Virus record (IMG/VR): IMGVR_UViG_2737471826_000010 | Coordinates: 1-35,432 of that record | From: a virus | Lineage: Duplodnaviria; Heunggongvirae; Uroviricota; Caudoviricetes | Reading direction: 5' to 3' (one strand) | Length of the DNA: 35,432 nt | Part shown: one piece after another, positions 1,637 through 29,555 of the stretch | Numbering within the stretch: position 1 is the first letter of the stretch | Layout: each line of letters opens with the position of its first letter | Notes under the pieces: generated by a model | Told to the model about the DNA's origin: nothing | The model's input: only the letters and a program-made list of their open reading frames with translations | The model's database searches: none | Translations under genes and position numbers: made by a program

Positions 1637-1651
1637 TTACCGTTGAGGTAA
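1637..1651. promoter_or_regulatory. operator site TTACC-GTTGA-GGTAA (OL-proximal)
   Basis: Perfect copy of the recurring 15-bp palindrome; sits just downstream of the PL-like -10 and 20 bp upstream of the first leftward gene. Confidence 0.6.
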
Positions 1652-1679
1652 TAATTATGCGTATATGGTTTGATGTCAA
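1652..1679 (-). promoter_or_regulatory. PL-like leftward early promoter
   Basis: Minus-strand perfect -35 TTGACA (plus 1674..1679) and AT-rich -10 (plus 1652..1658) with 16-17 bp spacing, flanked by two operator copies. Confidence 0.4.
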
Positions 1680-1698
1680 TAGATATGAGTTAAAAAAA

Positions 1699-1713
1699 TT
1701 ACCCGTTAGGTAA
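1699..1713. promoter_or_regulatory. operator site TTACC-CGTTA-GGTAA (OL-distal)
   Basis: Perfect palindrome copy upstream of the PL-like -35. Confidence 0.6.
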
Positions 1714-1724
1714 TCGAATAGGCA

Positions 1725-1748
1725 ATAAAAAAGCCGCCATAAGGCGGC
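1725..1748 (-). terminator. rho-independent terminator after repressor gene
   Basis: Stem GCCGCC/GGCGGC with 4-nt loop followed on the minus strand by TTTTTTAT. Confidence 0.6.
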
Positions 1749-1770
1749 TTACTTACTGAAAAATATGGTT

Positions 1771-2355
1771 TTATTGTTTGTTTTTTTCGTTCTGGTTGAT
1801 GACAAATTCAATGTAACTTTCGATCTTTGCTTTCTCGGTTTCGGGTAACAATGCGTAGCGCGAGCGATCATAGTTGATGGTCGCAGGGTCATGCGGATGA
1901 ATCAGTAGTTCATATCCGTGACGCCCGAATGCAGATGCAACATTCTCCAGGGTGGAAATGGAAACGCTGACCTCATTGTTTAACAGGCGGCTTATTGTCA
2001 CCTGGGCGACGCCGGATGCGCGGTGAAGTTTTCCCTGAGTTGAAAGGTCGCGGCTTTCACTCATCCAGCGTTCCAGGTTGTGAGCCGCCAGCTGACCTAT
2101 ATCACTCGGGCCGACAGGCTGAAAACCCTCCTGAGAAAGCGAGCGATCAATATCAAGCCAGTTACGGGGTTTATTGGCGGCAGCTTCAATTTTTCGTGCA
2201 ACCTGGTCGCCGATAACCTTCTTGCCAAGAGCCCAGCGGTTTACCAGATTTGCCTGAGTTCCAAGTTTTTCTGCCATCCGCGTCTGAACACCATTGAATT
2301 CACGGTCGATCAAGTCGTTGAGATTTTGCCTGCGGACGTCCTGGATACTTTTCAT
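1771..2355 (-). CDS. CI-like prophage repressor with two helix-turn-helix regions; no peptidase motif seen
   Basis: 194 aa; N-terminal HTH (QTRMAEKLGTQANLVNRWALGKKVIG) and second HTH-like segment (ASGVAQVTISRLLNNE); divergent from cro across the operator; no GDSM or Ser/Lys autocleavage signature by eye. Confidence 0.65.
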   Translation of the reverse strand: MKSIQDVRRQNLNDLIDREFNGVQTRMAEKLGTQANLVNRWALGKKVIGDQVARKIEAAANKPRNWLDIDRSLSQEGFQPVGPSDIGQLAAHNLERWMSESRDLSTQGKLHRASGVAQVTISRLLNNEVSVSISTLENVASAFGRHGYELLIHPHDPATINYDRSRYALLPETEKAKIESYIEFVINQNEKNKQ

Positions 2356-2410
2356 TTTCTGGAAAATCGCCTCATATATGAATCAGTAGATGATTCAATT
2401 TAAAGCAATA

Positions 2411-2425
2411 TTACCCAACAGGTAA
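2411..2425. promoter_or_regulatory. operator site TTACC-CAACA-GGTAA (OR, perfect copy)
   Basis: Perfect palindrome in the repressor-cro intergenic region. Confidence 0.65.
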
Positions 2426-2427
2426 AT

Positions 2428-2473
2428 GCACCTCATAGGTAACTATCCTTGATTTTTGTTACCTTATGGGTGA
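2428..2473. promoter_or_regulatory. two degenerate operator sites plus PR-like promoter
   Basis: GCACC-TCATA-GGTAA (2428..2442) and TTACC-TTATG-GGTGA (2459..2473); candidate -35 TTGATT at 2449..2454 and -10 near 2472..2477; three-site layout like OR1-3. Confidence 0.45.
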
Positions 2474-2509
2474 ATATTTATTATCTGAAATAAATATCAG
2501 GCAATAGCT

Positions 2510-2740
2510 ATGAGCGATAACGGACATTTCGATTTCAAAAAGCACTGGCTTGCACTTACTCCGGATGAGCGTGAAGCCTTCGCACAGGAAGCCGGAACGA
2601 CGAGTCACTATATCCAGACTCACTTAACAGGTAAGCGCAAAATGCCAGGTAAAGTATTGATGAATGGGCTTTTTAAAGCCTGTAAAACAAGACAATGGCT
2701 GCGCTCAAAAGCAGAACTGGCATACTTCTTCTACTCATGA
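2510..2740 (+). CDS. cro: Cro-like small HTH regulator
   Basis: 76 aa, divergent from repressor; HTH-like REAFAQEAGTTSHYIQTHLTGKRKMP; followed by a terminator. Confidence 0.55.
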   Translation: MSDNGHFDFKKHWLALTPDEREAFAQEAGTTSHYIQTHLTGKRKMPGKVLMNGLFKACKTRQWLRSKAELAYFFYS

Positions 2741-2762
2741 TATCCAGCCACAACCCTCTGTA

Positions 2763-2784
2763 GACCGCCATCCGGCGGTCTTTT
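2763..2784 (+). terminator. rho-independent terminator (tR1-like) after cro
   Basis: Stem GACCGCC/GGCGGTC, loop ATCC, then TTTT; a half-degenerate operator copy GTACC-TCAAA-GGTAA follows at 2796..2810. Confidence 0.6.
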
Positions 2785-2890
2785 CATATCTATTCGTACC
2801 TCAAAGGTAATAAAAAACCAAATATGGTTGATCTTTTTTTTGTGTCAGCACAAAATAACCGTAATCCCAATACTAATAACAGGGCTTACC

Positions 2891-3091
2891 ATGGAAATCA
2901 TTACACGTATTGATGCCGCAAAGCGCGGACTTAAACGCTACTACACCGGAAAAACATGTAAGCACGGACATGACAGTGAACGCTGGGTTTACAACGGACA
3001 CTGTGTTGAGTGCACCATGGAATCAAACCGTCGTATCAGGGCAGAGATTAAGCAGATCATGATTAATTCCTCCCCACAACATTCAAGCTGA
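2891..3091 (+). CDS. small Cys/His-rich protein, possible zinc-binding regulator (cII position)
   Basis: Start assigned to ATG 2891 (MEIITRIDAAKRGLKRYYTGKTCKHGHDSERWVYNGHCVEC...); the track N-terminal extension is hydrophobic read-through of intergenic sequence. Confidence 0.35.
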   Translation: MEIITRIDAAKRGLKRYYTGKTCKHGHDSERWVYNGHCVECTMESNRRIRAEIKQIMINSSPQHSS

Positions 3092-3106
3092 TAGCGGAGA
3101 TTAATC

Positions 3107-3922
3107 ATGAGCAGACATGCAACAGATTGGGCCTGGGAGACAGATCCAGGTAGCTCGTCATTAAAGCTCATACTGCTCTCGATGGCTGACAGAGCCGATG
3201 AATATAACCTCTGCTACCCCAGCATAGAACGCCTCGTTAAAGACACTTGCCTGAATAAAAAAACCGTGCAGGCCGGACTTATATCGCTCATGAAAATGGG
3301 GCTTATTTCAGATACCGGGGAGAGAAAGGGAGCGACAAAAAGAGTGCGGGTTTTCTCTCTTAATATAACCAAAAACGGGAACATTAAAGGCAACCGAGAG
3401 GGGGGTAATGAACCCGAAAGCGGTAATGTTACCGAAAACTGGAATATACCCAAAAACGGGATGTTGAATGATCCCAAAAACGGGATGTTGAATGATCCCA
3501 AAAACGGGATCCAGAACCAGTCATATAACCAGTCATTTAACCAAGAGAGGGAGAGCAGGACAAAAAACGGGGATTCTGTGCATCATGACCCCGGCGCAAA
3601 CAACGCCGTGATGAATAACTTTGTTCCTCCTGGTGGGCCAGGGCAATTAGGCAAATTTGTCATGCATGAACAATGGCAGCCATCAGATGACTTTCTTCGG
3701 AAAAGCTCATTGCAGGGGATCTACCTGGACAGTCTGCCAACGGCACAGGAACTTGCAGAGTTCAGAATTTACTGGATGGCTGAGGGTAAGGCATACCATC
3801 AGGCACAGTGGGAGCAGAAGCTGGCAAGGCGGCTGCAGATTAGCAGACAGAAGCAATCAACATTACCTGATAACAACGTTCCGCACTGGAACAGCCCTGA
3901 AGCATGGGAGGATTTCTTGTGA
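3107..3922 (+). CDS. replication initiator, O-like (HTH N-terminus, Asn-rich repeat linker, lambda-O-like C-terminus)
   Basis: 271 aa; N-terminal HTH (LKLILLSMADRADEYNLCYPSIERLVKDTCLNKKTVQAGLISL); central NG-rich repeats encoded by DNA iterons; C-terminal WQPSDDF...IYWMAEGKAY; overlaps downstream P-like gene. Confidence 0.6.
   Translation: MSRHATDWAWETDPGSSSLKLILLSMADRADEYNLCYPSIERLVKDTCLNKKTVQAGLISLMKMGLISDTGERKGATKRVRVFSLNITKNGNIKGNREGGNEPESGNVTENWNIPKNGMLNDPKNGMLNDPKNGIQNQSYNQSFNQERESRTKNGDSVHHDPGANNAVMNNFVPPGGPGQLGKFVMHEQWQPSDDFLRKSSLQGIYLDSLPTAQELAEFRIYWMAEGKAYHQAQWEQKLARRLQISRQKQSTLPDNNVPHWNSPEAWEDFL
3369..3512. repeat. iteron array inside the O-like gene (candidate replication origin)
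   Basis: CCAAAAACGGGA at 3369..3380; 24-bp unit CCCAAAAACGGGATGTTGAATGAT at 3449..3472 and 3473..3496, partial third copy 3497..3512; degenerate copies near 3431 and 3560. Confidence 0.5.
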
Positions 3923-4704
3923 ACAACGTTTTTACCGCGATACAAAACCGTGACGGAGAAGCCCTTTCTCGCATGTCAGGTTATGAGCATCAGTACGTCA
4001 ACAATGACAATGTGGTGAACATGTCAGCAGAGAGGCTTGTTGATGCCCTTTTTAAACAGCTGAAACAACTGTTTCCGGCGGCAGTGGTAACCAACCTGAA
4101 GACGCCAGAGCAGGAAGTTGCTGCAAAACAGCAGTGGATTGCTGCGTTTGCCGAAGGGGGGATCCGAACCCGTGAACAGGTTTCTGCTGGTATGCGCCAC
4201 GCCCGCGCCAGTGAGTCTCCGTTCTGGCCGTCGCCAGGGCAATTCATCAAGTGGTGTAAAGACAGCAAGATGGTTCTTGGCGTCACCATTGACGATGTGA
4301 TGGCGGAGTTTCACCGGTACAGCAAGGAAAAAAGTTTATATCCTGGTGGTCCCGAAAGATTCCCGTGGCGACATCCGGTTATGTACTGGGTCGTATGTGA
4401 TACCCGCCGTGCAATGTATCAGCGCCAGCTTAGCGAGATTGAGGTTGAGAAACACGCGCGCAGGCTGCTCGATGATTGGGCGAAAAAGGTGGCTTCCGGA
4501 CAGCAGATACCCGATCCGGTGATCAGCATACAGGCAAAGCCAGAACCCATGAGTACGCCTCCGGACACAGGGAGAGACGTTTACCATCCACCAGGGCGAA
4601 GTTTCGGGTGCATGCCTAACGCCGCCACCCTTGGGGGAATAACACCGGCGCAGTGGCTGATGGAGGAATACAGGCGGGGAAAGGCGTCAGGATTTATCAA
4701 GTAA
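3904..4704 (+). CDS. replication protein P-like helicase loader
   Basis: Strong resemblance to lambda P central region (FPAAVVTNL...EQVSAGMRHARASESPFWPSPGQFIKWCKDSK versus lambda FPASLANR...EQVNAGMRVARRQNRPFLPSPGQFVAWCREEAS, recalled from memory); true start may be in-frame GTG 3919 with GGGAGGA RBS. Confidence 0.75.
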   Translation: MGGFLVNNVFTAIQNRDGEALSRMSGYEHQYVNNDNVVNMSAERLVDALFKQLKQLFPAAVVTNLKTPEQEVAAKQQWIAAFAEGGIRTREQVSAGMRHARASESPFWPSPGQFIKWCKDSKMVLGVTIDDVMAEFHRYSKEKSLYPGGPERFPWRHPVMYWVVCDTRRAMYQRQLSEIEVEKHARRLLDDWAKKVASGQQIPDPVISIQAKPEPMSTPPDTGRDVYHPPGRSFGCMPNAATLGGITPAQWLMEEYRRGKASGFIK

Positions 4705-4741
4705 TACCAGCGCGATAGCGCATTTTTTTACGTCTCGATAA

Positions 4742-4756
4742 TTACCTTAGAGGTAA
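4742..4756. promoter_or_regulatory. operator site TTACC-TTAGA-GGTAA
   Basis: Perfect palindrome copy upstream of a candidate promoter (-35 TTGATT, -10 TTTAAT) for the 4822 gene. Confidence 0.55.
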
Positions 4757-4803
4757 TAAAATATTCTAAAATCTATTGATTTCGTGTCTTATGTGGTTTT
4801 TAA

Positions 4804-4818
4804 TTACCTAAGGGGTAA
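4804..4818. promoter_or_regulatory. operator site TTACC-TAAGG-GGTAA
   Basis: Perfect palindrome copy 4 bp upstream of ATG 4822, overlapping its RBS and predicted +1. Confidence 0.55.
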
Positions 4819-4821
4819 ATC

Positions 4822-5169
4822 ATGAGAAAACAGATGCAGGCTCTTGGTCGACTCAAAACAGGCCAGATGAACAAAACAGAATCTGCGTATTGCCAGCACC
4901 TTGAGCTGCGTAAACGTGCAGGAGAAATCGTCTGGTATCGATTTGAGGGTATCAAGCTGCGGTTAGCTGACAACACGTTCTATACGCCAGATTTTGCTGT
5001 GATGCTCGCCACCGGCGAGATGGAACTGCACGAAGTGAAAGGGGGATTCTGGACCGATGACGCCAGAGTGAAAACCAAAGTCGCCGCAGATCAGTATCCG
5101 TTCCGAATCATCGGGGTAACGGTTAAGCCAAAGAAAGCAGGTGGTGGCTGGAACATCGAAGAGTTCTGA
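4822..5169 (+). CDS. DUF1064-type phage protein (PD-(D/E)XK-like)
   Basis: 115 aa; YTPDFAV...ELHEVKGGFW core resembles DUF1064 proteins of lambdoid prophages. Confidence 0.5.
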   Translation: MRKQMQALGRLKTGQMNKTESAYCQHLELRKRAGEIVWYRFEGIKLRLADNTFYTPDFAVMLATGEMELHEVKGGFWTDDARVKTKVAADQYPFRIIGVTVKPKKAGGGWNIEEF

Positions 5170-5230
5170 ATCGACGATCTTTTTAGTTATCAATGTAATC
5201 AATAAGTTATGTGGATAAGCGAGGGTAAAG

Positions 5231-5494
5231 ATGGAAAGTAATATCAAAGGGTTAGTTGCCGCCGGGCATGAGATGGCTTCGGAACTGAAAGCAGAATGTG
5301 GTGCCGTTGATATGCGCAGTGTGGCAAAGCTGATCAGCGATTTGGCAACGCAACTGGAAGTGCAACTGGTGCGTGCTAATGCGCTGGCAGCGGAGAATGC
5401 GGTAATGCTCGAAACTATTGAAGCCGTTCGCAGTGTTGCGGATAACTCCAGTGGAATTGCCGGATGGCATTTGAATGGCGATATCGCTACGTGA
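5231..5494 (+). CDS. hypothetical protein (87 aa)
   Basis: ORF with GAGGG RBS; predicted helical; no recognisable motif. Confidence 0.45.
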   Translation: MESNIKGLVAAGHEMASELKAECGAVDMRSVAKLISDLATQLEVQLVRANALAAENAVMLETIEAVRSVADNSSGIAGWHLNGDIAT

Positions 5495-5775: not shown

Positions 5776-5776
5776 G

Positions 5777-5968
5777 ATGAACGGACAAATATCAATTGTT
5801 CGACCGGGAGCATGTGACGATTGCGAGATACGAATGATTATTCGTCTGGCGAGGGGGAAAACAATAACTGCTCTCATTACTCCAGAAAATCTCGCATTAG
5901 CATTAACAGGAAAGTCAGACCTGCCAGTAGAGCTAAAGCTTCGAAATGTTGAGATTAAGGTGAAATAG
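5777..5968 (+). CDS. hypothetical small protein (63 aa)
   Basis: Start assigned to ATG 5777 preceded by AAAGGAGAG; contains CDDCE motif. Confidence 0.4.
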   Translation: MNGQISIVRPGACDDCEIRMIIRLARGKTITALITPENLALALTGKSDLPVELKLRNVEIKVK

Positions 5969-6516: not shown

Positions 6517-6857
6517 TGGACTATTCACAGTTAAGTGATTTTGAAATTAACAGAATGGTAGGAGACATAATTTTTAAAGGCCTTTGGGCATGTAAACCGG
6601 AAACATCAGGGAATAACACCAACAAATGGTATTACGGAAATACTGATACAACTTTTGAGCCATTAAACCATTTACCTGACTACTGCAATGATCCTAGCGC
6701 CTCATGGCCGATTATTGAGAAACACAGGATTTCTATCTTAGACCAGTTAACTGAATGGTGTGTTGATGCAAAAGGCGTAAGACCAATATTTGATACCAGA
6801 CCTCTCCGCGCCGCCATGATTGTATTTCTCATGATGCAGGAAAATCAGAATGGCTAA
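6513..6857 (+). CDS. hypothetical phage protein (114 aa; possibly DUF2591-type)
   Basis: ORF translationally coupled to both neighbours; family assignment from memory only. Confidence 0.4.
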
Positions 6858-7188
6858 ATCAGCAGCAGAGCGCAAAGCCGCTCAGAGAGCCAGACAAGCT
6901 GCATCTGGTGTGCGTAAGCTGGAAATTGTGCTTGATGCTCAGGAAATTGAAATGCTGGAGCGTAACTGTGCCACGCGTCGCCCCGGGCGTGCGCCTTACG
7001 AATTTGGTGAGTATATAGCGTTACTGATCCGCCAGGATGATGCACGCGTGCGCGGGCGTATAAAATCGATCAGCAGAAAACGTTGCGGTAAGTGCGGCGA
7101 GAGAGTTCCAGTTAATTCATGCCCGTGTAATGGTGACTCGCAATGCTGGGTGACTAAAGGCTGGCATGAAACGAAATTAATAGTGTGA
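6850..7188 (+). CDS. putative DNA-binding regulator: ribbon-helix-helix-like N-terminus plus Cys4 zinc ribbon
   Basis: 112 aa; basic N-terminus, [18 protein letters not shown], then [21 protein letters not shown]; last early gene before terminator and terS; stop codon lies inside the GTGACATGTCAC palindrome. Confidence 0.45.
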
Positions 7189-7196: not shown

Positions 7197-7237
7197 GAGT
7201 AGATTATGCATGATGAATTTGATGGGTTTTGAATACT

Positions 7238-7263
7238 GCCGCCAACTATGGCGGCTTTATTTT
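7238..7263 (+). terminator. rho-independent terminator between early genes and terS
   Basis: Stem GCCGCC/GGCGGC with 6-nt loop, then TTTATTTT. Confidence 0.6.
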
Positions 7264-7274
7264 GCATGGTATTA

Positions 7275-7289
7275 TTACCACAACGGTAA
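7275..7289. promoter_or_regulatory. operator site TTACC-ACAAC-GGTAA upstream of terS
   Basis: Perfect palindrome copy; a degenerate copy TTACC-ACGGT-GGTTA at 7293..7307 abuts the terS start. Confidence 0.55.
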
Positions 7290-7306
7290 CAATTACCACG
7301 GTGGTT

Positions 7307-7903
7307 ATGATGCCTGCTGAACCTAAAACCTATAAACGCAAATCAACGCAATTTAAGCCGCTCACAGCAATGCAGGAGGCTTATTGCCAGTCATACATCA
7401 AAACGCCTGAAAACCAGACTCAGGCTGCGATTAACGCAGGATTCTCCCCAAATACAGCGGCAGTTAAAGCCAGCGTCATGATGCGCGATGAACGCATTCA
7501 AAAACGGATTGCCGAGTTGATGGAGGAGCGCAACAAACGAATGCGCGTCAGTGCTGATTACGTTCTTATGCGCCTGGTGGAGATCGACCAGATGGACGTG
7601 ATTGATATCCTCAACGACGATGGGAGCCTTAAGCCAATCCGCGAGTGGCCGAAAATCTGGCGCACTACGCTTAGTGGCTTTGATCTGTCATCGACCATCA
7701 TGAACATGAACGAGGATTCGATAGAGACAATCCTCAAAAAAATTAAATGGCCTGACAAGGTGAAGAACCTCGAACTGATTGGTAAGCACGTCGACGTCAA
7801 CGCATTCAAAGAACGCCTGGATGTTAATGTGAATGTGACAATTGCTGATCGCATAGCGGCAGCCAGGAAGCGACTCAAAGAACGTCAGGATGGTAATCAG
7901 TGA
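7307..7903 (+). CDS. terS: terminase small subunit
   Basis: AMQEAYCQSYIKTPENQTQAAINAGFSPNTAAVKAS resembles small-terminase family; start set to ATG 7307 because the track start at 7229 would translate through terminator and operator. Confidence 0.7.
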   Translation: MMPAEPKTYKRKSTQFKPLTAMQEAYCQSYIKTPENQTQAAINAGFSPNTAAVKASVMMRDERIQKRIAELMEERNKRMRVSADYVLMRLVEIDQMDVIDILNDDGSLKPIREWPKIWRTTLSGFDLSSTIMNMNEDSIETILKKIKWPDKVKNLELIGKHVDVNAFKERLDVNVNVTIADRIAAARKRLKERQDGNQ

Positions 7904-9465: not shown

Positions 9466-9840
9466 TTATTGCTCGCTTAGCTTCTGCTTCAGCAAGTAAC
9501 CTTCGAGCATCCAGATTTTGTTTACAGCATTCTGCCGGGCAATCTTCCGACCAATTTCTGCATCAAAGTTTTCCGGGCTTGCACAGGCACTCTCTCCGGT
9601 GACGGTGAAGCCATTCTTCAGCACCAGTACGCAGAAAGTGAGAAGGTGCAGAGCATCAGGGGTGGCTTCGACATAAGGCTCCGGATTATAAATAAGGTCA
9701 TCTTCTTTAGCCTGGTGATCACCCTGCGCAGCAGTGAAAAAATGCTCACTGCAAATGAGGCCTTCAATTTTCTCAGGTGTTACACGCGTTGCCGTTTTGC
9801 CTTTCTCAACGATTTCTTTTTCGATTTGCTGGTCGTTCAT
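9466..9840 (-). CDS. hypothetical moron protein (124 aa), co-oriented with tRNA-Arg
   Basis: ATG at 9840 with AAGGTGA RBS; inserted opposite to flanking terL and portal genes. Confidence 0.5.
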   Translation of the reverse strand: MNDQQIEKEIVEKGKTATRVTPEKIEGLICSEHFFTAAQGDHQAKEDDLIYNPEPYVEATPDALHLLTFCVLVLKNGFTVTGESACASPENFDAEIGRKIARQNAVNKIWMLEGYLLKQKLSEQ

Positions 9841-9851: not shown

Positions 9852-9875
9852 AAAAAAATGCCCGGCGAACCGGGC
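9852..9875 (-). terminator. terminator/attenuator between tRNA-Arg and the moron gene
   Basis: Stem GCCCGG/CCGGGC, loop CGAA, minus-strand T7 tract ending 11 nt before the ORF start codon. Confidence 0.5.
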
Positions 9876-10038
9876 GAACTGGAAGCAATGAGTTATGCCT
9901 TCCGTGGCTGTACGGGTTTACAGCATGAAGTCATCGCAATGGCGTCCTGCTGTAAAAAGGGCGGTGATAGTCCTTCAAGTGAAACCATCACCGCCAAGCA
10001 CCTGGAACTTCTGGTATCACGGTCCTTAGGCGTGATTC

Positions 10039-10115
10039 TGGCGTGGCATGCAGGATTCGAACCTGCGACCAACCGCTTAGAAGGCGGTTGCTCTGTCCAA
10101 CTGAGCTAATGCCAC
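10039..10115 (-). tRNA. tRNA-Arg (anticodon UCU), argU-like
   Basis: 77 nt; acceptor GTGGCAT/ATGCCAC, D-arm GCTC...GAGC, anticodon stem ACCGC/GCGGT with loop CTTCTAA, T-arm GCAGG-TTCGAAT-CCTGC, encoded CCA; close to E. coli argU with compensatory stem changes. Confidence 0.9.
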
Positions 10116-10437: not shown

Positions 10438-10452
10438 TTACCTGAAAGGTAA
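10438..10452. promoter_or_regulatory. operator site TTACC-TGAAA-GGTAA upstream of morphogenesis genes
   Basis: Perfect palindrome copy about 90 bp upstream of gene 10543. Confidence 0.55.
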
Positions 10453-10542
10453 TAATTCGCGCGTTAAATGTCAACTATCTACGATAAATAAATCATATAT
10501 GGTTAAATTGGTAATAATTTAATTGCGTACGGAGTCATTGAT

Positions 10543-19729: not shown

Positions 19730-22242
19730 TGCCAGTCGTACCAACAGTATCCGGACGTCAGGTTGAGAGCCGTGGAGTTCAGTCAGCAGGCTTGCAGACG
19801 TTTTCTCAGCCAGGTATTGGTGATGCTTTTGTTCGGGCAGGGGCAGAGGCAATTGATGTTTTGGGGCAGGCAAAACAGCGTGCCAATATTGCCTTGGCTC
19901 AGGAGGCATCTCTTAACCTCAGTCAGATAAGCAGTGATTTGCTGAATAATCCTGAAACAGGATTGCTGAACCTGAAAGGGAAAAATGCTATTGGAAAAGG
20001 CCATGAGTATACGCAGCAGTTTGATGCTCAGGTCGAACAATTGGCTATGTCGCTGCCGGATGAACAGGCTCGTAATGCTTTCATGCAGCAGGCGCAGCAG
20101 CAGCGCATTCAGTTCACTACGCAGGCCGGGCGGCACGAGATAGGGCAAATAAATGCCTACGAAGAAGGCCAGTTTCAGGCTACGCTGCTGAACAATGGTA
20201 AAAATGCCGCAGCATTGTATGGCGACAACGCCGCATACGTATTGGCTAATAAGCAAACTTTCCAGCAAATTGAGGATTACGGCATTGCACATGGCTGGAG
20301 TGACGAGCAAATCCAGGCCAAGAAAATCGAGTTTAAAGAAGCAACAGCAAAAGCAACTGCTCAAAATGCTATTGGAGCAAACTATCTTCAGGTAAGACGG
20401 CAAAACGGCGAGTTAAGCGATACTGCTGCTGGATCTCGCCGTGCTGTAGCAGATAGTGGCTCTTCCGATCGTACCCGCGGTATACGCAACAATAACCCCG
20501 GCAATCTTGAATACAGCAAAACTAATCCGTGGGTTGGGCAGACTGGTGATGATGGTCGCTTTGCCAAATTCGAAACCCCTGAACACGGTATTCGTGCATT
20601 AGGGCGGAACCTGATGTCGTATCAGCGGCAGGGTATTGATACCGTCAGCGAGATAATTAATCGCTGGGCACCGCCTACTGATAAAAATGACACTATGTCG
20701 TATATCAAAGCAGTGTGCGAACAACTTGGCGTTTCTGCTGATGAGCCTCTCGATGCATCAAATCCTGATACCCTGAAGGCGCTTTGTGCAGCCATTATCC
20801 ATCATGAAAACGGTAGCCAGCCATACAGTGATCAGCAGTTAACTGCAGGTGTTAGTGCTGCGCTGGGGCTTTCTCAGCTACCGACAAAAAATAAACGTTA
20901 TACCGGTGTAGCCTGGTTCGATGCTTTAAGTGAATCAGATCAGGCCAGCGTGTTGCGACAGACTGATGCACTAGCCAGACAACAGCAGGCTGAATATAAA
21001 ACGATGCTCGACAGCCGGGTTCGCGATGCGACGGCTGCGTATATGCGTGGCGTTGAATTTCCTAACCCACCTGGTGAGGATGATTTTATTGCAGCTTATG
21101 GAGTCAGAGAAGGAAACCTGCGATATACCGAGTTTAAGAATACGCAGATCGCCGGACAGTATATAGGCTCTTTCCGCAACATGCCGACAAGCAGCATTAC
21201 AGCATATGTTGAGCAATTACGCCCGGATACTGGTGATACAGGGGAGGGGTATGCGGCACGCGCAGCTCTTTATGACAACGTTGTTTCGGCTGCAAATCAG
21301 GTGATAAAGCAGCGGCAGTCGGATCCTGTGCAGTTCTCTCTTGCCTCCGGACAGGCAAAGCCTATCGACATGAGCAATAAGGATAACTTTGGACAGAGCG
21401 TTGCCTTGCGTGCCGCTCAGGTCAGTGACCTTGCTAAGTCATATGGCACTCCACTGACGTTCTTTTCCAAAGACGAGGCCAATCAGATCGGTGTTTTCTT
21501 TCGTGATGCGCCAGTTTCCCAACAGGCAGCATATCTCGATACCATCAGGCAGAGCACTGGTGGTGGGCAGGTGTATATGTCAGCACTACAGCAGATCAGT
21601 GCCAACGCTCCATCTGCTGCCGTTGCCGGGATACTGATGGATAAGCCTGGTGGTATTTTGGCAGAAAAAAACTGGTTTAATCCTGATGTTTCCGTGTCTC
21701 CTGAAACCGCAGCGCAGACAATTCTTGCTGGTGCGGCGGCTCGTAAAGGTACTGATGACGCGAAAGGTATTCCGATGCCTAAAGATGCTGATCTCCGCCT
21801 TGAGTTTTCTGACATGGTGAAGGATGCATTTGCTGGTGATGCTCAGGGGGCATCAATGGCATACGAGATCGCAAAGGACTATTACGCTGGTGTGATGGCG
21901 AAAAAAGGCGTGGTATCAGGCGAAATTGACAATGATATCTGGAAACAGGCTGTTAACGTAGCTACAGGTGGTGTGCATGACTATAACGGAATGGGGAATG
22001 TTCTTTTGCCGTGGGGAATGTCTGCAGAGCAATTCGATAAGCAGGTTAATCAGGCTTGGAATGAACAAGTTGTCGGCACAGGGATAAAAACACCGCTTGG
22101 TCAGTATGGTTTGCAAAGTTACGGCGATAGTCAGTACCTGGTGAAACTTGGTACTGGTTATCTGCTAAAAGATGATGGTTCTCCCGTTGTTCTTGATCTG
22201 ACACAGAAGCGTCAGAGATTCTCCGGAGATATTCCGCAATGA
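19729..22242 (+). CDS. internal virion/ejection protein (838 aa)
   Basis: Start ATG 19729 (TAATG overlap, GGAGG RBS) rather than the track start at 19654. Confidence 0.5.
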   Translation: MPVVPTVSGRQVESRGVQSAGLQTFSQPGIGDAFVRAGAEAIDVLGQAKQRANIALAQEASLNLSQISSDLLNNPETGLLNLKGKNAIGKGHEYTQQFDAQVEQLAMSLPDEQARNAFMQQAQQQRIQFTTQAGRHEIGQINAYEEGQFQATLLNNGKNAAALYGDNAAYVLANKQTFQQIEDYGIAHGWSDEQIQAKKIEFKEATAKATAQNAIGANYLQVRRQNGELSDTAAGSRRAVADSGSSDRTRGIRNNNPGNLEYSKTNPWVGQTGDDGRFAKFETPEHGIRALGRNLMSYQRQGIDTVSEIINRWAPPTDKNDTMSYIKAVCEQLGVSADEPLDASNPDTLKALCAAIIHHENGSQPYSDQQLTAGVSAALGLSQLPTKNKRYTGVAWFDALSESDQASVLRQTDALARQQQAEYKTMLDSRVRDATAAYMRGVEFPNPPGEDDFIAAYGVREGNLRYTEFKNTQIAGQYIGSFRNMPTSSITAYVEQLRPDTGDTGEGYAARAALYDNVVSAANQVIKQRQSDPVQFSLASGQAKPIDMSNKDNFGQSVALRAAQVSDLAKSYGTPLTFFSKDEANQIGVFFRDAPVSQQAAYLDTIRQSTGGGQVYMSALQQISANAPSAAVAGILMDKPGGILAEKNWFNPDVSVSPETAAQTILAGAAARKGTDDAKGIPMPKDADLRLEFSDMVKDAFAGDAQGASMAYEIAKDYYAGVMAKKGVVSGEIDNDIWKQAVNVATGGVHDYNGMGNVLLPWGMSAEQFDKQVNQAWNEQVVGTGIKTPLGQYGLQSYGDSQYLVKLGTGYLLKDDGSPVVLDLTQKRQRFSGDIPQ

Positions 22243-26521: not shown

Positions 26522-26530
26522 GGAACAACA

Positions 26531-26944
26531 ATGAAGGAATTATTGCTGTTATCGGTATTTTTGATATCAGCTTGCTCGACATCCTATGATGTTTATGACG
26601 GTGTTGATAAGGCATATTGCGACAAAGTTAAAATGGATTTTTCTCTTGCCAAGACGGCGAAGGATAGTTGTATTGATCACTACGTCAAGACTTATACCAA
26701 GCCAGCCTCATCGGCATCTGATATTGCTGAAGGTGCTGTGTTTGAGTGTAACAAGGTGATATCCATCGCAGCGAGTTCTTCATACGATGCTGCTGTATGT
26801 GCAATGGCTGAAAGAAACGGCATGTCAGTGCAAAAAATTAATAGCATGATAAGCAGTAATGACGAAGCCAAAATAAGAACTGATATCAGCTCGGTGAAAA
26901 AAGATGCCATGAACAGAGTTGTAAAATATCAGTCATCTTTATAA
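26531..26944 (+). CDS. lipoprotein moron (possible superinfection exclusion)
   Basis: Signal peptide with lipobox LISAC; visibly AT-rich; followed by palindrome copy 3 and a terminator. Confidence 0.55.
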   Translation: MKELLLLSVFLISACSTSYDVYDGVDKAYCDKVKMDFSLAKTAKDSCIDHYVKTYTKPASSASDIAEGAVFECNKVISIAASSSYDAAVCAMAERNGMSVQKINSMISSNDEAKIRTDISSVKKDAMNRVVKYQSSL

Positions 26945-26947
26945 GTC

Positions 26948-26959
26948 GTGACATGTCAC
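26948..26959. repeat. 12-bp perfect palindrome GTGACATGTCAC (copy 3)
   Basis: Exact copy 3 bp after the lipoprotein stop and 1 bp before the terminator stem. Confidence 0.8.
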
Positions 26960-26960
26960 A

Positions 26961-26984
26961 GGCCGCTTTCGCGGCCTTGTTTTT
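26961..26984. terminator. terminator between convergent genes
   Basis: Stem GGCCGC/GCGGCC, loop TTTC, then TTGTTTTT on plus strand. Confidence 0.6.
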
Positions 26985-27144
26985 AACGAATGCCACCGCC
27001 GCCTGGGCGGGAATCCGCAGAACGCCCACCGCAGCGGGAGCCGTCAGCAGCAGTGTCGCTGTCGTGCTGACAACGACCAGCAAAGGCCTGAGTTGAAGCT
27101 ACCAGAGACAATAAAACGAACAGTGCAGCAAATGCTTTTTTCAT
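26983..27144 (-). CDS. small secreted peptide (53 aa)
   Basis: Internal ATG at 27144 gives MKKAFAALFVLLSLVASTQAFA signal peptide followed by a 31-aa Gly/Arg-rich mature region with two Cys; weak RBS. Confidence 0.3.
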   Translation of the reverse strand: MKKAFAALFVLLSLVASTQAFAGRCQHDSDTAADGSRCGGRSADSRPGGGGIR

Positions 27145-27225
27145 TGTGAAATTTCCATCTATAAGCCACCTCAATGTGGCGTCAATGAGTGTAGCACTGA
27201 CTTTTGTTTCGTCCATAAAAAACTA

Positions 27226-27738
27226 CTATGCAGGCTTTTTGGATTTGTACGAATAATCCCACGGATAAACATTTCTACTAAGTGGAGCTGTATTCGTTCG
27301 TTCATGAAATAATTTTGTGAAATTCAATACGGAATCCATCCAAACTTTTGCGTTAGCTTTGGTGTGTGCGGGCGGGTCCCAATAAGCTAGTAAGGCTGCA
27401 TCTCTTATTTCATTGACTGCATATATGAGATATGCGTTACTGGTTGGTTTTGGCCTGTAATTTCCTTGTTCATCAATCAATCCGTATGACCACTCATCCC
27501 AACACTGTTCAGTACATGAGTATGAATATGATGCATATTCACCAATATTGACATGAACCTTTCTGAGATGGAAACCTAATACTTCGTCTGGTCTTTCAAA
27601 AAGAGTATCTTTTCCCAGATCAGGATGATGACCATGACGCCAGTGTTGTTTAAAAGCATCTTTTAGCGAAATCAGAAAGTCATCAGTTTTAAACTCACCA
27701 GTAGGTATAACCTTCCCGCTATACTCACTCAAAAACAT
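27226..27738 (-). CDS. YafO-like toxin (putative ribosome-dependent mRNA interferase)
   Basis: 170 aa; PDLGKDTLFE, FHLRKVHVNIG and AYLIYAV...ALLAYWDPPAHTKA align with remembered E. coli YafO blocks (PDTFGRDALYD, ERVAHIHLANE, AHLVYCQ...WLLIAILKPEPHKLA); strong RBS AAGGAAGAGGAA; AT-rich. Confidence 0.45.
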   Translation of the reverse strand: MFLSEYSGKVIPTGEFKTDDFLISLKDAFKQHWRHGHHPDLGKDTLFERPDEVLGFHLRKVHVNIGEYASYSYSCTEQCWDEWSYGLIDEQGNYRPKPTSNAYLIYAVNEIRDAALLAYWDPPAHTKANAKVWMDSVLNFTKLFHERTNTAPLSRNVYPWDYSYKSKKPA

Positions 27739-28051
27739 CGAATTCCTCTTCCTTCATATGCGTTTCTAATGAGTTAAGCTGGCGGAAAGATATCTCTTTT
27801 GATTCTGCAGATGAGAGCTTTTTTATCCGCTTTATATTCTTTGTGATAGGAATAGACATTGTATGCACATCAGCGGATGCTCTTGGCTTTGTGCTGATAA
27901 AAATATGGCGCAATGCCGCATTTTCACTATTGAACGAGCCAATAGCTGATTTACGTGCTACAACCTTACCAGTAAAAATACGACTCTTGCTACGCTTTGC
28001 ATGAGTTCCGCTTCTTACCGGACCTCTCATCACGAATCCAAGTTTTGTCAT
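27725..28051 (-). CDS. putative antitoxin/partner of the YafO-like toxin
   Basis: 108 aa, basic N-terminus, acidic C-terminus EEEFDVFE; GGAGA RBS; overlaps the toxin gene by 14 nt; not obviously YafN/Phd-like. Confidence 0.4.
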   Translation of the reverse strand: MTKLGFVMRGPVRSGTHAKRSKSRIFTGKVVARKSAIGSFNSENAALRHIFISTKPRASADVHTMSIPITKNIKRIKKLSSAESKEISFRQLNSLETHMKEEEFDVFE

Positions 28052-28093
28052 CTTTAATCTCCGGTAAGTTACAGGTATAAAATAAAAACAGGT

Positions 28094-28108
28094 TTACCTT
28101 TAAGGTAA
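28094..28108. promoter_or_regulatory. operator site TTACC-TTTAA-GGTAA upstream of toxin-antitoxin-like operon
   Basis: Perfect palindrome copy 43 bp upstream of start codon at 28051. Confidence 0.55.
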
Positions 28109-28180
28109 TAGTACGCTATTCACCCCCAGTCTGCAATCTGTACAGAATTATTTAAAGGCACATCCCTGTGCCGCCGCCAG

Positions 28181-28891
28181 TCAGAAGAACCCTGCCTTGT
28201 CGTTGATGTATTCCGCGTGTGTCTGGATATCACGCAGGCATTTGCTCACACCGACGATGTAGCAGAACATGGTGGTCAGTTCCGCCGCCGCGCCCGATAC
28301 GTCGTGCCCGTCGTCCTGTAACTGGTTCAGCAGATTCATCAGCAGTGAGTTCTCCGTCAGGCCGAGAACACCAGACGGCGAGTGAATCAGGCTGCGGTAG
28401 CCGGGCTTCAGTGGGGCGCTGTAGGTTTTGTTCTCTATCTTCATTGCCTGCATCACTGCTGATGCTGTGGCGTTGGCTACCTGGTCGGCAACCATCTTTA
28501 TGCGTTCTTCCTGCGGGAGCGAGTTTTTAATGTAACTTCCGGTGCGGCGGATCTGAGGAAGTACTTCGCCTGTAACCCATTTGCGAAAGCGGTAGGGGAT
28601 AGTGCCTGGTGTCACCGCATCGCGGCAGCGGAGGATCAGTGTGTAGAGGCCTGACTCGGAGATGATGTTGATCTCTTTTACTCGGCTGTCAAAAATTGCA
28701 CGATGTTCATGCCCTATGTTGAACATAGACCTTTCATCATCATCCAGTTTTTCAAGTGCTTGGGTGACGTTTTGGATACGCAGCGCACTACAAACGTCTT
28801 GGGCTACAAACCATGGTTGGCCATCGATAATGATGGAACGGATAGGGTTAACAGATTCAAATTTGAAGATGGCAGTTTGAGCATTAGCCAT
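28181..28891 (-). CDS. antirepressor with Bro-N domain
   Basis: N-terminal WFVAQDVCSAL...SGLYTLILRCRD...FRKWVTGEVLPQIRRTG is a Bro-N-type signature; start set to ATG 28891 with GGAGA RBS; C-terminal domain paralogous to gene 29207..29464. Confidence 0.65.
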   Translation of the reverse strand: MANAQTAIFKFESVNPIRSIIIDGQPWFVAQDVCSALRIQNVTQALEKLDDDERSMFNIGHEHRAIFDSRVKEINIISESGLYTLILRCRDAVTPGTIPYRFRKWVTGEVLPQIRRTGSYIKNSLPQEERIKMVADQVANATASAVMQAMKIENKTYSAPLKPGYRSLIHSPSGVLGLTENSLLMNLLNQLQDDGHDVSGAAAELTTMFCYIVGVSKCLRDIQTHAEYINDKAGFF

Positions 28892-29048
28892 GGTGGTTAT
28901 CTCCACTTAGTGATTTTAATCACCACCGCAACGCCAATTACTGGTGGTGAACTGGACAAGGTTGGCGTACCGGCCTAAGTGGTACCGGCGTCCTTTCGGA
29001 CCCCTGCCCAGCCCACCATAATTCGGATATAGCTGTGCTTAACGCATA

Positions 29049-29071
29049 AAAAAACCACGTCTGGCGTGGTA
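29049..29071 (-). terminator. rho-independent terminator between the two antirepressor genes
   Basis: Stem ACCACG/CGTGGT, loop TCTGG, minus-strand T7 tract. Confidence 0.6.
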
Positions 29072-29160
29072 TGCGCCACTTAGTAACCCGGGACGCCAAT
29101 CCCGGCACTGGATTTTGCCAGTGCCTGATTACTATGGCACAAGAGGAGTGCGATGTAAAT

Positions 29161-29175
29161 TTACCGCAAAGGTAA
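29161..29175. promoter_or_regulatory. operator site TTACC-GCAAA-GGTAA
   Basis: Perfect palindrome copy between the small and large antirepressor genes. Confidence 0.55.
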
Positions 29176-29206
29176 ATATAAGCACTCCACTTGGTAATTG
29201 CAAACC

Positions 29207-29464
29207 TTATCTGGTTTGTTTTCGTAATTGTTCGGCACAATAGTCGAGATGTGTTTGCAGATCCTGCATAGACATCTGTGAGCTGGTGACGTAGTTAATC
29301 AGTGCAGTCAGTTCGGCAAGTGGGCCATCGACATTAAATCCATCCTTATCGAGATCCCGGAGTAATTTCATCAAGTGCGATCCCTCCACCAGTGACCTGA
29401 CGCCTCCCGGCGTGTGAATCCTTTCGGTAAATCCGTCTTCCAGTGGATAGTGATACCGCTGCAT
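29207..29464 (-). CDS. small antirepressor-domain protein (paralog of Ant C-terminal domain), candidate SOS-induced antirepressor
   Basis: 85 aa from ATG 29464 (GGAGA RBS); IHTPGGVRSLVEGSHLMKLLRDLDKDGFNVDGPLAELT...LQTH aligns with Ant C-terminus IHSPSGVLGLTENSLLMNLLNQLQDDGHDVSGAAAELT...IQTH; LexA box 20 bp upstream. Confidence 0.55.
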   Translation of the reverse strand: MQRYHYPLEDGFTERIHTPGGVRSLVEGSHLMKLLRDLDKDGFNVDGPLAELTALINYVTSSQMSMQDLQTHLDYCAEQLRKQTR

Positions 29465-29483
29465 CTTATCTTCTCCATGCAAT

Positions 29484-29503
29484 AACTGTATAAATATACA
29501 GTA
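29484..29503. promoter_or_regulatory. LexA (SOS) box
   Basis: AACTGTATAAATATACAGTA matches consensus TACTGTATATATATACAGTA at 18 of 20 positions with intact CTGT-N8-ACAG. Confidence 0.7.
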
Positions 29504-29540
29504 TCAAATAATTTGTTTGCTATCCAGCACGTTTTGCAAA

Positions 29541-29555
29541 TTACCCGAAAGGTAA
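29541..29555. promoter_or_regulatory. operator site TTACC-CGAAA-GGTAA
   Basis: Perfect palindrome copy in the divergent region between small antirepressor gene and tailspike gene. Confidence 0.55.

Follow-up and report, generated by a model that had tools for sequence, protein, structure and literature searches.

TTACC-N5-GGTAA as the very probable operator of the Rep repressor across a phiV10/epsilon15-like prophage

The window analyzed here, a stretch of 35,432 nucleotides, is a phiV10/epsilon15-like (Uetakevirus) prophage in which one 15-bp palindrome, TTACC-N5-GGTAA, recurs between genes, and the question is which regulator reads it. A first-pass annotation had proposed that a single dimeric repressor acts through these copies directly at many promoters, in the manner of phage P1 C1 operators or mycobacteriophage stoperators. 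Judged from sequence, the palindrome is very probably the operator of the prophage's own repressor, Rep, at the promoter of nearly every transcription unit; comparative evidence and the annotation of epsilon15 supported this core of the proposal, but not the dimer or the stoperator analogy.

Number and placement of the palindrome

The results showed that all ten perfect copies reported earlier are present (starting at 1637, 1699, 2411, 4742, 4804, 7275, 10438, 28094, 29161 and 29541), in comparison to 0.03 expected from 100 dinucleotide-preserving shuffles of the window, among which the largest count was 1. The four degenerate copies were also recovered, with two mismatches at 2428 and one each at 2459, 2796 and 7293. 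In an unbiased scan for all 5-mer palindromes with spacers of 0 to 9 bp, TTACC-N5 came out on top in six Uetakeviruses, whose hosts belong to Escherichia, Salmonella, Klebsiella and Enterobacter. The motif is not equally common in unrelated host DNA, as 100 kb of E. coli K-12 contained no perfect copy, 7 copies with one mismatch and 48 with two; coding DNA of the window has 21 two-mismatch sites, a density equal to that in K-12, and these are thus regarded as background.

On a curated gene map, in which non-coding sequence makes up 7.7% of the window, all ten perfect and all three one-mismatch sites are intergenic as had been claimed (P of about 8e-12 for the ten perfect sites under random placement), with two caveats. 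Sites 7275 and 7293 fall within the long TTG-start form of terS (7229-7903) annotated in phiV10, and lie upstream of the ATG at 7310, which gives terS the length it has in TL-2011b, epsilon15 and Tyrion; site 29161 falls within a mechanical TTG open reading frame (28938-29240) that is without annotation in relatives and overlaps two Rfam RNA genes. The proposed extension of the symmetry to flanking A...T was reduced to a tendency, seen in 12 of the window's 20 half-sites and in 62% over 210 distinct site contexts.

A terminator precedes each module of the window, and family scans of the window found no N- or Q-like antiterminator, in agreement with the first-pass annotation. The genome would consist of short, terminator-separated transcription units with an operator in the promoter of nearly every one. 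Around rep these are PL and PR, the latter counted with the rep promoter; beyond the replication genes comes the post-replication (nin-like) operon, then terS and the head block, and further on the accessory-gene slot, the operon for C4 RNA and the Bro-N antirepressor, and the ant/tailspike region. Relatives have further sites before the lysis cassette and int.

Rep and its predicted operators

The features around rep are as follows, with operators given without strand.

1771-2355, minus strand: rep, 194-aa repressor with N-terminal helix-turn-helix DNA-binding, middle HTH_3-like dimerization and C-terminal tetramerization/Ant-binding domains
2510-2740, plus strand: cro-like gene for a 76-aa small regulator, leading the rightward operon opposite rep
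1637-1651: OL1 operator, perfect, adjoining the -10 of PL, the leftward early promoter, and centered near +1
1699-1713: OL2 operator, perfect, on the upstream side of the PL -35 and 62 bp away from OL1
2411-2425: OR-cluster operator, perfect, overlapping the -35 of the putative leftward rep promoter
2428-2442: OR-cluster operator, two mismatches, 17 bp from 2411
2459-2473: OR-cluster operator, one mismatch, within the core of the rightward promoter PR
2796-2810: weak operator (GTACC, one mismatch), just 3' of the cro-like gene terminator, before gp40-like and replication genes

Rep and phiV10 p40 are 100% identical, and SPC32H Rep is a homologue (PDB 5D50_A, E 4e-42 over the full length; 5D4Z, E 4e-20); its N-terminal domain contains 24 of the 30 invariant columns of the repressor alignment, and a family scan of Rep found no S24 autocleavage domain. 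Papers citing the SPC32H work describe its Rep as a tetramer, in the crystal and on DNA, that is dismantled by its antirepressor, which argues against the simple dimer proposed earlier. Overexpression in phage ZX5 of a protein identical to Rep lowered the transcripts of holin and endolysin by over 99.9%.

That the copies flank the repressor gene like OL and OR was supported by comparative evidence and by the epsilon15 annotation. PL (TTGACA at 1679, 17-bp spacer, AATTAT at 1656..1651; score 11.9) shares the last T of its -10 with the first T of OL1, which is conserved in five phages, and the 62/63-bp operator spacing is kept in all six Uetakeviruses. The putative rep promoter (TTACCT at 2425, 17-bp spacer, TAAATT at 2402..2397; score 8.6) has a -10 conserved in the alignment. 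Epsilon15, SPC32H and the Klebsiella phage each have a perfect orthologue of site 2428, and 17-bp site spacing recurs 44 times. PR can be read as TTGTTA(2456)-17-TATTAT, with a score of 11.6, or as the conserved TTGATT(2449)-18-AATATT; site 2459 within it is weak, with a position conserved across relatives. Site 2796, which follows the terminator at 2762-2781, has one-mismatch orthologues in phiV10, Tyrion and the Klebsiella phage, and is the only site for which the claim that copies precede replication-region genes holds, since the 4742/4804 pair follows those genes and precedes the DUF1064/nin-like operon.

The dispersed sites are the following.

4742-4756: post-replication upstream operator, perfect, 62 bp from 4804
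4776-4818, plus strand: post-replication promoter TTGATT-17-TTTAAT (score 11.5) with perfect operator 4804-4818
7267-7307, plus strand: terS control region, with extended -10 TGgTATTAT (7267-7275; score 7.7 with TG) and operators 7275-7289 and 7293-7307
10438-10452: head-block operator, perfect; epsilon15 orthologue 2931-2947 annotated as repressor site
10500-10514: hybrid half-operator TGGTT-AAATT-GGTAA, exactly 62 bp from 10438
28094-28108: accessory-slot operator, perfect, adjoining the -10 of a leftward promoter
29161-29203, minus strand: C4/Bro promoter TTGCAA-17-TATATT (score 12.5) with perfect operator 29161-29175 adjoining its -10
29541-29555: ant/tailspike operator, perfect, in a divergent control region; epsilon15 orthologue 19895-19911 annotated as repressor site
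29591-29605: hybrid half-site TGGTT-N5-GGTAA, 50 bp from 29541, immediately preceding a conserved TAGAAT

The post-replication module is conserved in five phages, and its operator 4804-4818 adjoins the -10 and extends to the ribosome binding site of the DUF1064 gene (ATG 4822). In the terS region, downstream of a terminator at 7238-7255, the perfect operator is followed 18 bp on by the one-mismatch operator, which overlaps the terS ribosome binding site; the epsilon15 terS site (12-27) is annotated as repressor. Inside the 10438 operator lies TACCTT, 17 bp from a conserved leftward TTGACA (minus strand, score 11.0), which may constitute a divergent promoter for the tRNA and a gp49/66-family gene, and site 10500 falls within an invariant 22-bp block before the head genes that is identical in all six phages. 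The accessory-slot promoter (TTGCAG at 28136, 17-bp spacer, TACTAT at 28113..28108; score 7.3) serves a variable slot (genes 27226-28051), and TL-2011b retains promoter and operator with different cargo. The C4/Bro promoter drives an isrK-like RNA (Rfam match 29048-29124), the C4 antisense RNA (28940-29023) and the Bro-N antirepressor. Operator 29541 precedes the core of the ant promoter, and likewise that of the best tailspike promoter, by about 30-50 bp, and would serve as spacer of a possible promoter TTGCAA-18-TCTATT (score 7.8); xGGTT-N5-GGTAA occupies the 29591 position in six of six phages.

Sigma-70 scores at PL, PR, post-replication and C4/Bro promoters were 11.5 to 12.5, in comparison to 8.1 for the 90th percentile in coding DNA, and an operator lies on each core. 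At five window promoters the operator starts at the last -10 base, and it fills the PR core, suggesting promoter occlusion as the likely mechanism: two N-terminal helix-turn-helix domains would pair to read each palindrome, and Rep bound at a unit would directly obstruct RNA polymerase there, without any N/Q-type cascade. Occlusion is less certain at the terS, head-block, tailspike and accessory-slot promoters, where consensus scores are weak or ambiguous (7 to 8). The Rep homologues are tetramers with two DNA-reading pairs, which would be consistent with the strict spacing of 17 or 62-63 bp. The sequences themselves show enrichment, placement, conservation, homology and covariation, from which we infer binding, occlusion and looping by Rep.

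Conservation, covariation and alternative readings

The epsilon15 record (AY150271.2) holds seven 'protein_bind / repressor / lysogeny' features, all ATTACC-N5-GGTAAT, dispersed and at orthologous places, including sites ahead of two promoters, PL and the post-replication one, and ahead of terS, the head block and the tailspike, and the window operators are therefore known biology; phiV10-type records, unlike epsilon15, are without operator annotation. Possibly new are the strict site spacing and the covariation of N5 and N4 sites with repressor type. Site positions and spacings are conserved across Uetakeviruses, with half-sites invariant and spacers and flanks varying in phylogenetic footprints. 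Across 160 loci with 21 N-terminal-domain variants, Rep-type proteins pair with N5 sites, and Pseudomonas cI proteins (related N-terminal domain plus S24 peptidase) with TTACC-N4-GGTAA at fixed OR/OL positions only around cI; half-site identity follows the repressor N-terminal domain.

This covariation cannot separate Rep from the Cro-like protein, since both genes travel together in the Uetakevirus and Pseudomonas lineages. The dispersed copies could be bound mainly by the Cro-like protein, which matches PHROG 35 'transcriptional repressor' (E 5.6e-13), or by the conserved PHROG-536 gene product (6850-7188, just before terS), which carries a 'transcriptional regulator' annotation, for lytic timing or late activation, with Rep acting only near rep. 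The head and tailspike promoters, which are poor sigma-70 matches with a conserved hybrid ATRTGGTT-N5-GGTAA that could be an activator site, agree with such a role. We consider it unlikely, as the dispersed sites are as perfect as the rep-adjacent ones or better, OL and the distant post-replication promoter use the same 62-bp pair geometry, the Pseudomonas phages have the half-site only around cI and are without the PHROG-536 context, and the epsilon15 authors attributed these sites to the repressor. The Cro-like protein probably shares Rep's operators; its binding would add to the Rep explanation rather than replace it, as shared Rep/Cro operators are the norm.

Stoperators of cluster A mycobacteriophages are asymmetric and orientation-biased, number 20-35 per genome and lie mostly away from promoters. 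The window resembles them in carrying many repressor-site copies across the genome in short intergenic gaps, and sites 2796, 4742 and 7275 are located 15-20 bp downstream of terminators, where read-through polymerase would arrive and could be halted, with 2796 and 29541 off any convincing promoter core. Such roadblocking as the main role is still less probable, because the window sites are palindromic and thus without orientation information, seven or more overlap predicted promoter elements (-35, spacer or -10), they number 10-14 (only 8-11 per genome), and none lies within the long 16-kb structural operon. The stoperator analogy fails on the palindromy and the promoter cores, and sites that follow a terminator may show roadblocking as a secondary effect. 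It is least probable that the palindromes are RNA hairpins for processing or termination, DNA cruciforms, host-factor sites or chance sequences: although every site can form a 6-7 bp hairpin (-4.2 to -7.2 kcal/mol) and some of these intergenic regions carry RNase III sites in the epsilon15 record, orthologues keep TTACC/GGTAA exactly while loops vary, conserved degenerate sites (GCACC..GGTAA, TTACC..GGTGA, TTACC..GGTTA) break the stem without compensation, no T-runs lie 3' of sites, the upstream member of each 62-bp pair precedes the predicted start site, host DNA lacks perfect copies in the 100 kb scanned, and the half-site tracks a phage-encoded helix-turn-helix domain across host genera.

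Known systems and induction

With Rep as the reader of the palindrome, the closest comparison is the epsilon15/SPC32H Rep-operator-Ant system, which is like the window in motif, site positions, spacings, genome layout and the LexA box at ant. Epsilon15 is without the accessory-slot (28094) and C4/isrK-Bro-N (29161) sites, and the second and third OR sites are weaker in the window. The Reps are homologous and the Ants 88% identical, but Rep identity is only 42%. That Reps so divergent use one operator is unusual for immunity determinants and counts against the assignment of the operator to Rep.

In P1, C1 acts directly at many scattered promoters with no N/Q cascade, and Op51 lies at the c4-icd-ant (immI) operon; in the window, likewise, one controlled unit combines C4 RNA with an antirepressor. 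P1 operators are asymmetric 17-bp sites for a different kind of repressor, in comparison to a 15-bp palindrome that would be read by the helix-turn-helix pair of a tetramer, and the protein families are unrelated by family scans. The P1 likeness is thus a fair functional analogy without relatedness. As with lambda CI/Cro, operator clusters flank the repressor gene, the rep and cro-like promoters diverge and three OR sites are graded; unlike lambda, OL consists of two sites 62 bp apart instead of a tandem triplet, operators reach late, lysis and accessory units, and Rep without S24 would be induced through an antirepressor. The Pseudomonas relatives have classical cI-S24 repressors with OR/OL sites only.

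According to a published account (PMC9986798), Rco of Bacillus plasmid pLS20 is a tetramer with a TetDloop domain that loops DNA between two operators and is countered by the antirepressor Rap, and SPC32H Rep resembles it in domain order (DNA-binding domain ... TetDloop), in having a homologous DNA-binding domain and in the antirepressor logic; the structural mechanism of Rep repression is there called not well characterized. Rep has an extra middle dimerization domain, unlike Rco. The 62-63 bp operator pairs are by analogy a natural substrate for putative looping by Rep.

The features relevant to induction are these.

28181-28891, minus strand: Bro-N domain antirepressor-like gene (Bro-N E 1e-19), downstream of the C4/isrK leader
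29207-29464, minus strand: ant, 85-aa antirepressor, 88% identical to SPC32H Ant (PDB 5D50_E, E 1e-46)
29486-29501: perfect LexA box CTGTATAAATATACAG, read from sequence, in the spacer of the ant promoter

The ant promoter is TTGATA-17-TATTGC on the minus strand (score 7.2). Rep homologues are described in citing papers as inactivated by a LexA-controlled antirepressor, and induction of this prophage would be sequestration of Rep rather than cleavage. Upon DNA damage, LexA would leave the ant promoter and the 85-aa Ant would be made, which would dismantle the Rep tetramers, and all operator-bearing units would be freed together.

Operator copies in the window and across the genus

The first-pass annotation had reported ten perfect copies of a palindromic operator, TTACC-N5-GGTAA, and a pattern search of the window recovered exactly those ten, compared with 0.03 expected and a largest value of 1 in 100 dinucleotide-preserving shuffles. 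The four degenerate copies it had listed were also recovered when mismatches were allowed, with two mismatches at 2428 and one each at 2459, 2796 and 7293.

Operators of the window and the repressor region
1637 and 1699: pair left of the repressor gene rep
1771-2355, minus strand: rep, for the 194-aa repressor Rep
2411, 2428 and 2459: cluster between rep and the cro-like gene
2510-2740, plus strand: cro-like gene
2796: degenerate site
4742 and 4804: post-replication pair
7275 and 7293: before terS
10438: head block
28094: accessory slot
29161: C4/Bro-N operon
29541: ant/tailspike region

With a gene map curated from the ORF list and annotated relatives, 7.7% of the window is non-coding, and this fraction contains each of the ten perfect and the three one-mismatch sites, so that for them the intergenic placement claimed earlier holds. 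Equal frequency of the motif in host DNA had been named as a result that would refute the earlier claim, and this was not the outcome: in 100 kb of E. coli K-12 there were 0 perfect sites, 7 with one mismatch and 48 with two. Sites with two mismatches in coding DNA of the window have the same density as this host background and were therefore rejected as functional sites.

Identity of the window to Escherichia phages PAS61, phiv142-3, ZX5 and TL-2011b is 97-98%. Its structural genes are shared with phiV10 and, at a greater distance, with epsilon15 of Salmonella; all these phages belong to the genus Uetakevirus. The right prophage end is marked by the att core that was described for ZX5:

34253-34269: att core, ATTGAGTGGGAATGATT

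The window therefore holds the right-hand part of an integrated prophage (exonuclease gene to attR) and, beyond it, 1.2 kb of host DNA; in the flank within 34253-35432 are genes for a DUF5384 protein and for a glycine-zipper/TraT-like lipoprotein.

All 5-mer palindromes were counted in each genome, with the spacer allowed to range from 0 to 9 bp. TTACC-N5 ranked first in the window (10 copies) and in five relatives, namely epsilon15 (11), SPC32H (10), phiV10 (8), a Klebsiella phage (9) and Enterobacter phage Tyrion (9), and was absent from an unrelated Pseudomonas siphophage in the same scan. The layout is also kept. Left of rep is a pair of sites with a spacing of 62 bp (63 bp once), and the interval between rep and the cro-like gene holds tandem sites spaced by 17 bp and a third, weaker one. 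A weak site follows the terminator of the cro-like gene, and a second 62-bp pair is downstream of the replication genes. Two sites, one strong and the other weak, precede terS; the head block is preceded by a single site, and another is in the ant/tailspike region. In the relatives, the lysis cassette also has a site in front of it, and int has one with a single mismatch. When five orthologous regions were aligned, the half-sites were invariant, the spacers variable and the flanks diverged.

The GenBank record of epsilon15 contains seven features labelled 'protein_bind, repressor, lysogeny', all seven of which read (A)TTACC-N5-GGTAAT and match the window motif in half-sites and A/T-rich spacer, the flanking positions being 62% A/T over 210 distinct site contexts. 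Three are left of the repressor gene, and the others are located after a replication gene, before terS, before the head block, and between gp19 (the homologue of the antirepressor Ant) and the tailspike gene. Epsilon15 has eleven perfect copies in total; the four without annotation (24704, 33341, 33358 and 35969) include both copies between the repressor and cro-like genes and one before the lysis cassette. The records of phiV10 and SPC32H contain no repressor-site features, and literature text searches covering phiV10, epsilon15, Uetakevirus and SPC32H turned up no paper with the operator sequence. The epsilon15 paper reportedly gives a 17-bp consensus. The operator finding is real and well explained, and its central point had been deposited earlier for epsilon15.

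Repressor, induction module and half-site covariation

Rep, an HTH_3/Cro-type protein whose gene lies between operator clusters, shares 100% identity with two proteins, phiV10 p40 and the ZX5 repressor; identity falls to 78% for the repressor of Tyrion, 45% for the Klebsiella phage repressors and 42% for those of epsilon15 and SPC32H. It is a homologue of SPC32H Rep, the crystal structure of which (5D50_A) aligns over the full length of window Rep (residues 1-190, E 4e-42), and the tetrameric C-terminal fragment 5D4Z also aligns (E 4e-20), giving an HTH N-terminal domain, a middle domain and a C-terminal domain for tetramerisation and Ant binding. A family scan found no Peptidase_S24 domain in window Rep, which differs in this from lambda-type CI with its S24 peptidase domain and RecA-stimulated self-cleavage. 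According to papers citing the SPC32H structure, Rep binds DNA as a tetramer, the dimer being a weak binder; the two N-terminal domains on one palindrome belong to different dimers; Ant, itself tetrameric, splits the Rep tetramer; and the Rep C-terminal domain is similar to a looping tetramerisation domain known from Rco and p53. These papers state that the structural mechanism of Rep repression 'has not been extensively characterized'. For ZX5, overexpression of the identical repressor was reported to remove free phage and to lower holin transcripts by 99.97% and endolysin transcripts by 99.99%, which supports indirectly that Rep binds the motif and represses the neighbouring promoters.

Induction module and C4/Bro-N operon
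28181-28891, minus strand: second antirepressor gene, Bro-N type, after the two RNAs below
28940-29023, minus strand: C4 antisense RNA in its leader (Rfam RF01695, 66 bits)
29048-29124, minus strand: isrK-like sRNA in its leader (Rfam, 67.7 bits)
29207-29464, minus strand: ant, for the 85-aa antirepressor Ant
29486-29501: perfect LexA box in the spacer of the ant promoter

Ant matches chain E of 5D50 (E 1e-46) and is 88% identical to SPC32H Ant, yet the C-terminal parts of the two Rep proteins are only about 39% identical, which leads one to expect either an interface that is small and conserved or cross-induction from one prophage to another. Since the operator is invariant across Reps of 42% identity and Ant is conserved at 88%, immunity and induction specificity in the genus may lie wholly outside operator recognition. 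The regulon features found in the window are the operator sequence, a cognate Rep between operator clusters, orthologous positions and spacings, and Ant under a LexA box; by sequence comparison, we assign the system to the epsilon15/SPC32H Rep-operator-Ant system.

A possible but unsupported alternative is that a different regulator acts at the dispersed sites. The invariant columns of the repressor alignment are mostly within residues 1-68 (24 of 30, including the helix ANLVNRW), and the N-terminal domain of the window is 54-56% identical to those of Klebsiella and Salmonella phages, compared with 39-44% for the C-terminal part. A word-indexed protein search with the N-terminal domain matched only near-identical or truncated proteins, and in the first viral-contig scan all of the best 80 matches carried a repressor domain identical to that of the window. 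Since that scan gave identical-domain loci only, the viral-contig loci were re-ranked on the Pseudomonas domain. The cI of Pseudomonas phage PseuP_224 has an N-terminal domain 42% identical to that of window Rep and, alone among the aligned repressors, an S24 peptidase motif in its C-terminal part; its genome carries TTACC-N4-GGTAA at four places only (one with one mismatch), all directly up- or downstream of cI, the half-site being identical and the spacer one base shorter. Nineteen further viral contigs of the cI-S24 type have N4 sites near fixed positions, two of them upstream of the start codon (by about 73 and 34 bp) and, in most contigs, another about 90 bp after the cI stop. A Pseudomonas siphophage cI-S24 family that shares the Rep N-terminal domain and has N4 operators at fixed OR/OL positions is thus observed (L007 10906-11820 and L090-L108). 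In a set of 160 loci with 21 domain variants, N5 sites invariably accompany the Rep type and N4 sites the S24 type, and the half-site therefore tracks the N-terminal domain through differing phage types, hosts and oligomerisation modules. As a cro-like gene is beside the repressor gene in both lineages, this covariation cannot tell Rep from the Cro-like protein; operators shared by repressor and Cro are the usual arrangement.

Promoter geometry and modules next to operators

Promoters were searched by a consensus scan and our own weight matrix, for which scores of coding DNA had a 90th percentile of 8.1 and a maximum of 11.7. Strong sigma-70 matches were found at four places, namely the early promoters PL and PR, the post-replication promoter and the C4/Bro-N operon promoter; the promoters of the head block and the tailspike match the consensus only weakly.

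Predicted promoters and scores
PL: TTGACA-17-AATTAT, 11.9
PR: TTGTTA-17-TATTAT, 11.6
Post-replication: TTGATT-17-TTTAAT, 11.5
C4/Bro-N operon: TTGCAA-17-TATATT, 12.5
Accessory slot: TTGCAG-17-TACTAT, 7.3
Before terS: extended -10 TGgTATTAT, 7.7
10446-10474, minus strand: candidate leftward promoter TTGACA-17-TACCTT, hexamer TACCTT inside the head-block operator, 11.0

At the PL, post-replication, C4/Bro-N, accessory-slot and terS promoters, the final T of the -10 is also the first T of the operator, which is therefore centred near +1; operator 29161 thereby abuts the -10 and covers the predicted promoter of the Bro-N gene. The weak operator 2459 sits in the PR core, and the perfect operator 2411 overlaps the -35 of the likely rep promoter. 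At least seven of the 14 sites are on predicted promoter cores, and this geometry argues for direct promoter occlusion. The earlier view that there is no antitermination cascade was upheld, in that an N- or Q-like protein was not found and a terminator precedes each module of the window.

The proposed likeness to mycobacteriophage stoperators, which are asymmetric, orientation-biased, mostly off promoters and block elongation, had to be given up: roadblocks of this type do not fit palindromic sites that lie largely on promoter cores and never inside the long operons. Action of the palindromes as hairpins or terminators is unlikely and was rejected, as the folds are modest, compensatory change is lacking, the sequence rather than the pairing is conserved, and conserved weak sites break the stem.

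Among consecutive perfect sites up to 120 bp apart in 124 non-redundant viral-contig loci, 275 of 278 spacings were 17 bp (n=44), 62 bp (n=185) or 63 bp (n=46), with three exceptions, and the head-block site has a half-operator exactly 62 bp away in six phages. This strict phasing suggests that the operators are not independent and that one Rep tetramer spans two sites, the promoter being clamped in a six-turn micro-loop. The combined proposal, of Rep tetramers bridging phased sites to clamp promoters and of operator recognition shared genus-wide with specificity elsewhere, is put forward only tentatively, as we consider it rather doubtful; if true, it predicts cross-repression and cross-induction among epsilon15-, SPC32H- and phiV10-type prophages.

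In each of the six phages, a hybrid TGGTT-N5-GGTAA was found at an exact distance from the full operator, 62 bp at the head block and 50 bp at the tailspike. The related ATRTGGTT occurs six times, always intergenic and near an operator:

1663, 1763, 2822, 4791, 10497 and 29588, all plus strand: ATRTGGTT

By count alone it is unconvincing as a second motif (2.4 expected; six reached in 5 of 100 shuffles), and it was kept solely for its conservation within three promoter modules (head, tailspike and post-replication), where ATRTGGTT-N5-(GGTAA or TTACC) is conserved genus-wide. It could be a promoter element or a late-activator site, for example for the PHROG-536 protein at 6850-7188. The candidate leftward promoter, with its -35 conserved in five phages, may be a divergent promoter, sharing the operator, for a tRNA and the N4 gp49/Sf6 gp66-family gene at 9466-9840.

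10042-10115, minus strand: tRNA gene, anticodon loop UCU, 73.3 bits

By its anticodon loop this tRNA is probably tRNA-Arg. SPC32H has a tRNA-Arg at the same place, and the ORF that the window tRNA overlaps (9858-10109, annotated p04 in phiV10) is probably spurious.

For the genes under operator 28094, a DNA search of the phage collection matched flanks only, with no close match to the genes. The same slot in TL-2011b (L170 1790-2564) holds other cargo, a YafO-family toxin and a small ORF; the promoter is retained there, as is a perfect operator whose spacer differs. Operator 28094 belongs to a conserved slot with exchanged cargo; homology between the two phages ends exactly at the slot operator, and operators may be markers of module exchange points. 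The 'toxin' label for 27226-27738 was dropped because its only support, a YafO match with E 9.5e-4, scored 19.7 bits and so fell below the cutoff of 25. Another small ORF, whose counterpart in relatives is annotated 'transmembrane anchored protein', was found beside the slot:

26983-27216, minus strand: small ORF between the slot and a bidirectional terminator, signal-peptide-like start MKKAFAALFVLLSLVASTQAFA

Relation to phage P1 and significance

The comparison with P1 C1 stands in part. Direct action at many scattered promoters is common to both, but the systems are unrelated: P1 C1 operators are asymmetric, 17-bp and read by a C1-type repressor, whereas the window has a perfect 5-N5-5 palindrome and an HTH_3/Cro-type homologue of SPC32H Rep. 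Like P1, the window has a predicted repressor-controlled operon of C4 antisense RNA and antirepressor, and 28940-29124 resembles the immI module of P1/P7, here under a Rep operator in a podophage, which points to a shared module rather than membership.

In general, the gain is mainly confirmation, the basic fact having been deposited for epsilon15. The analysis nevertheless indicates that a purely sequence-based reading can recover a real phage regulon, and its outcome is a complete map of the operators in a prophage type that is very common in E. coli. Testable refinements are the 17 or 62-63 bp spacing rule, the covariation of N5 versus N4 with the type of C-terminal domain, and Rep control of a swappable accessory-gene slot and of the C4-RNA/Bro-N module. 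As an alternative to the lambda cascade, one antirepressor-sensitive tetrameric repressor would directly silence every transcription unit.
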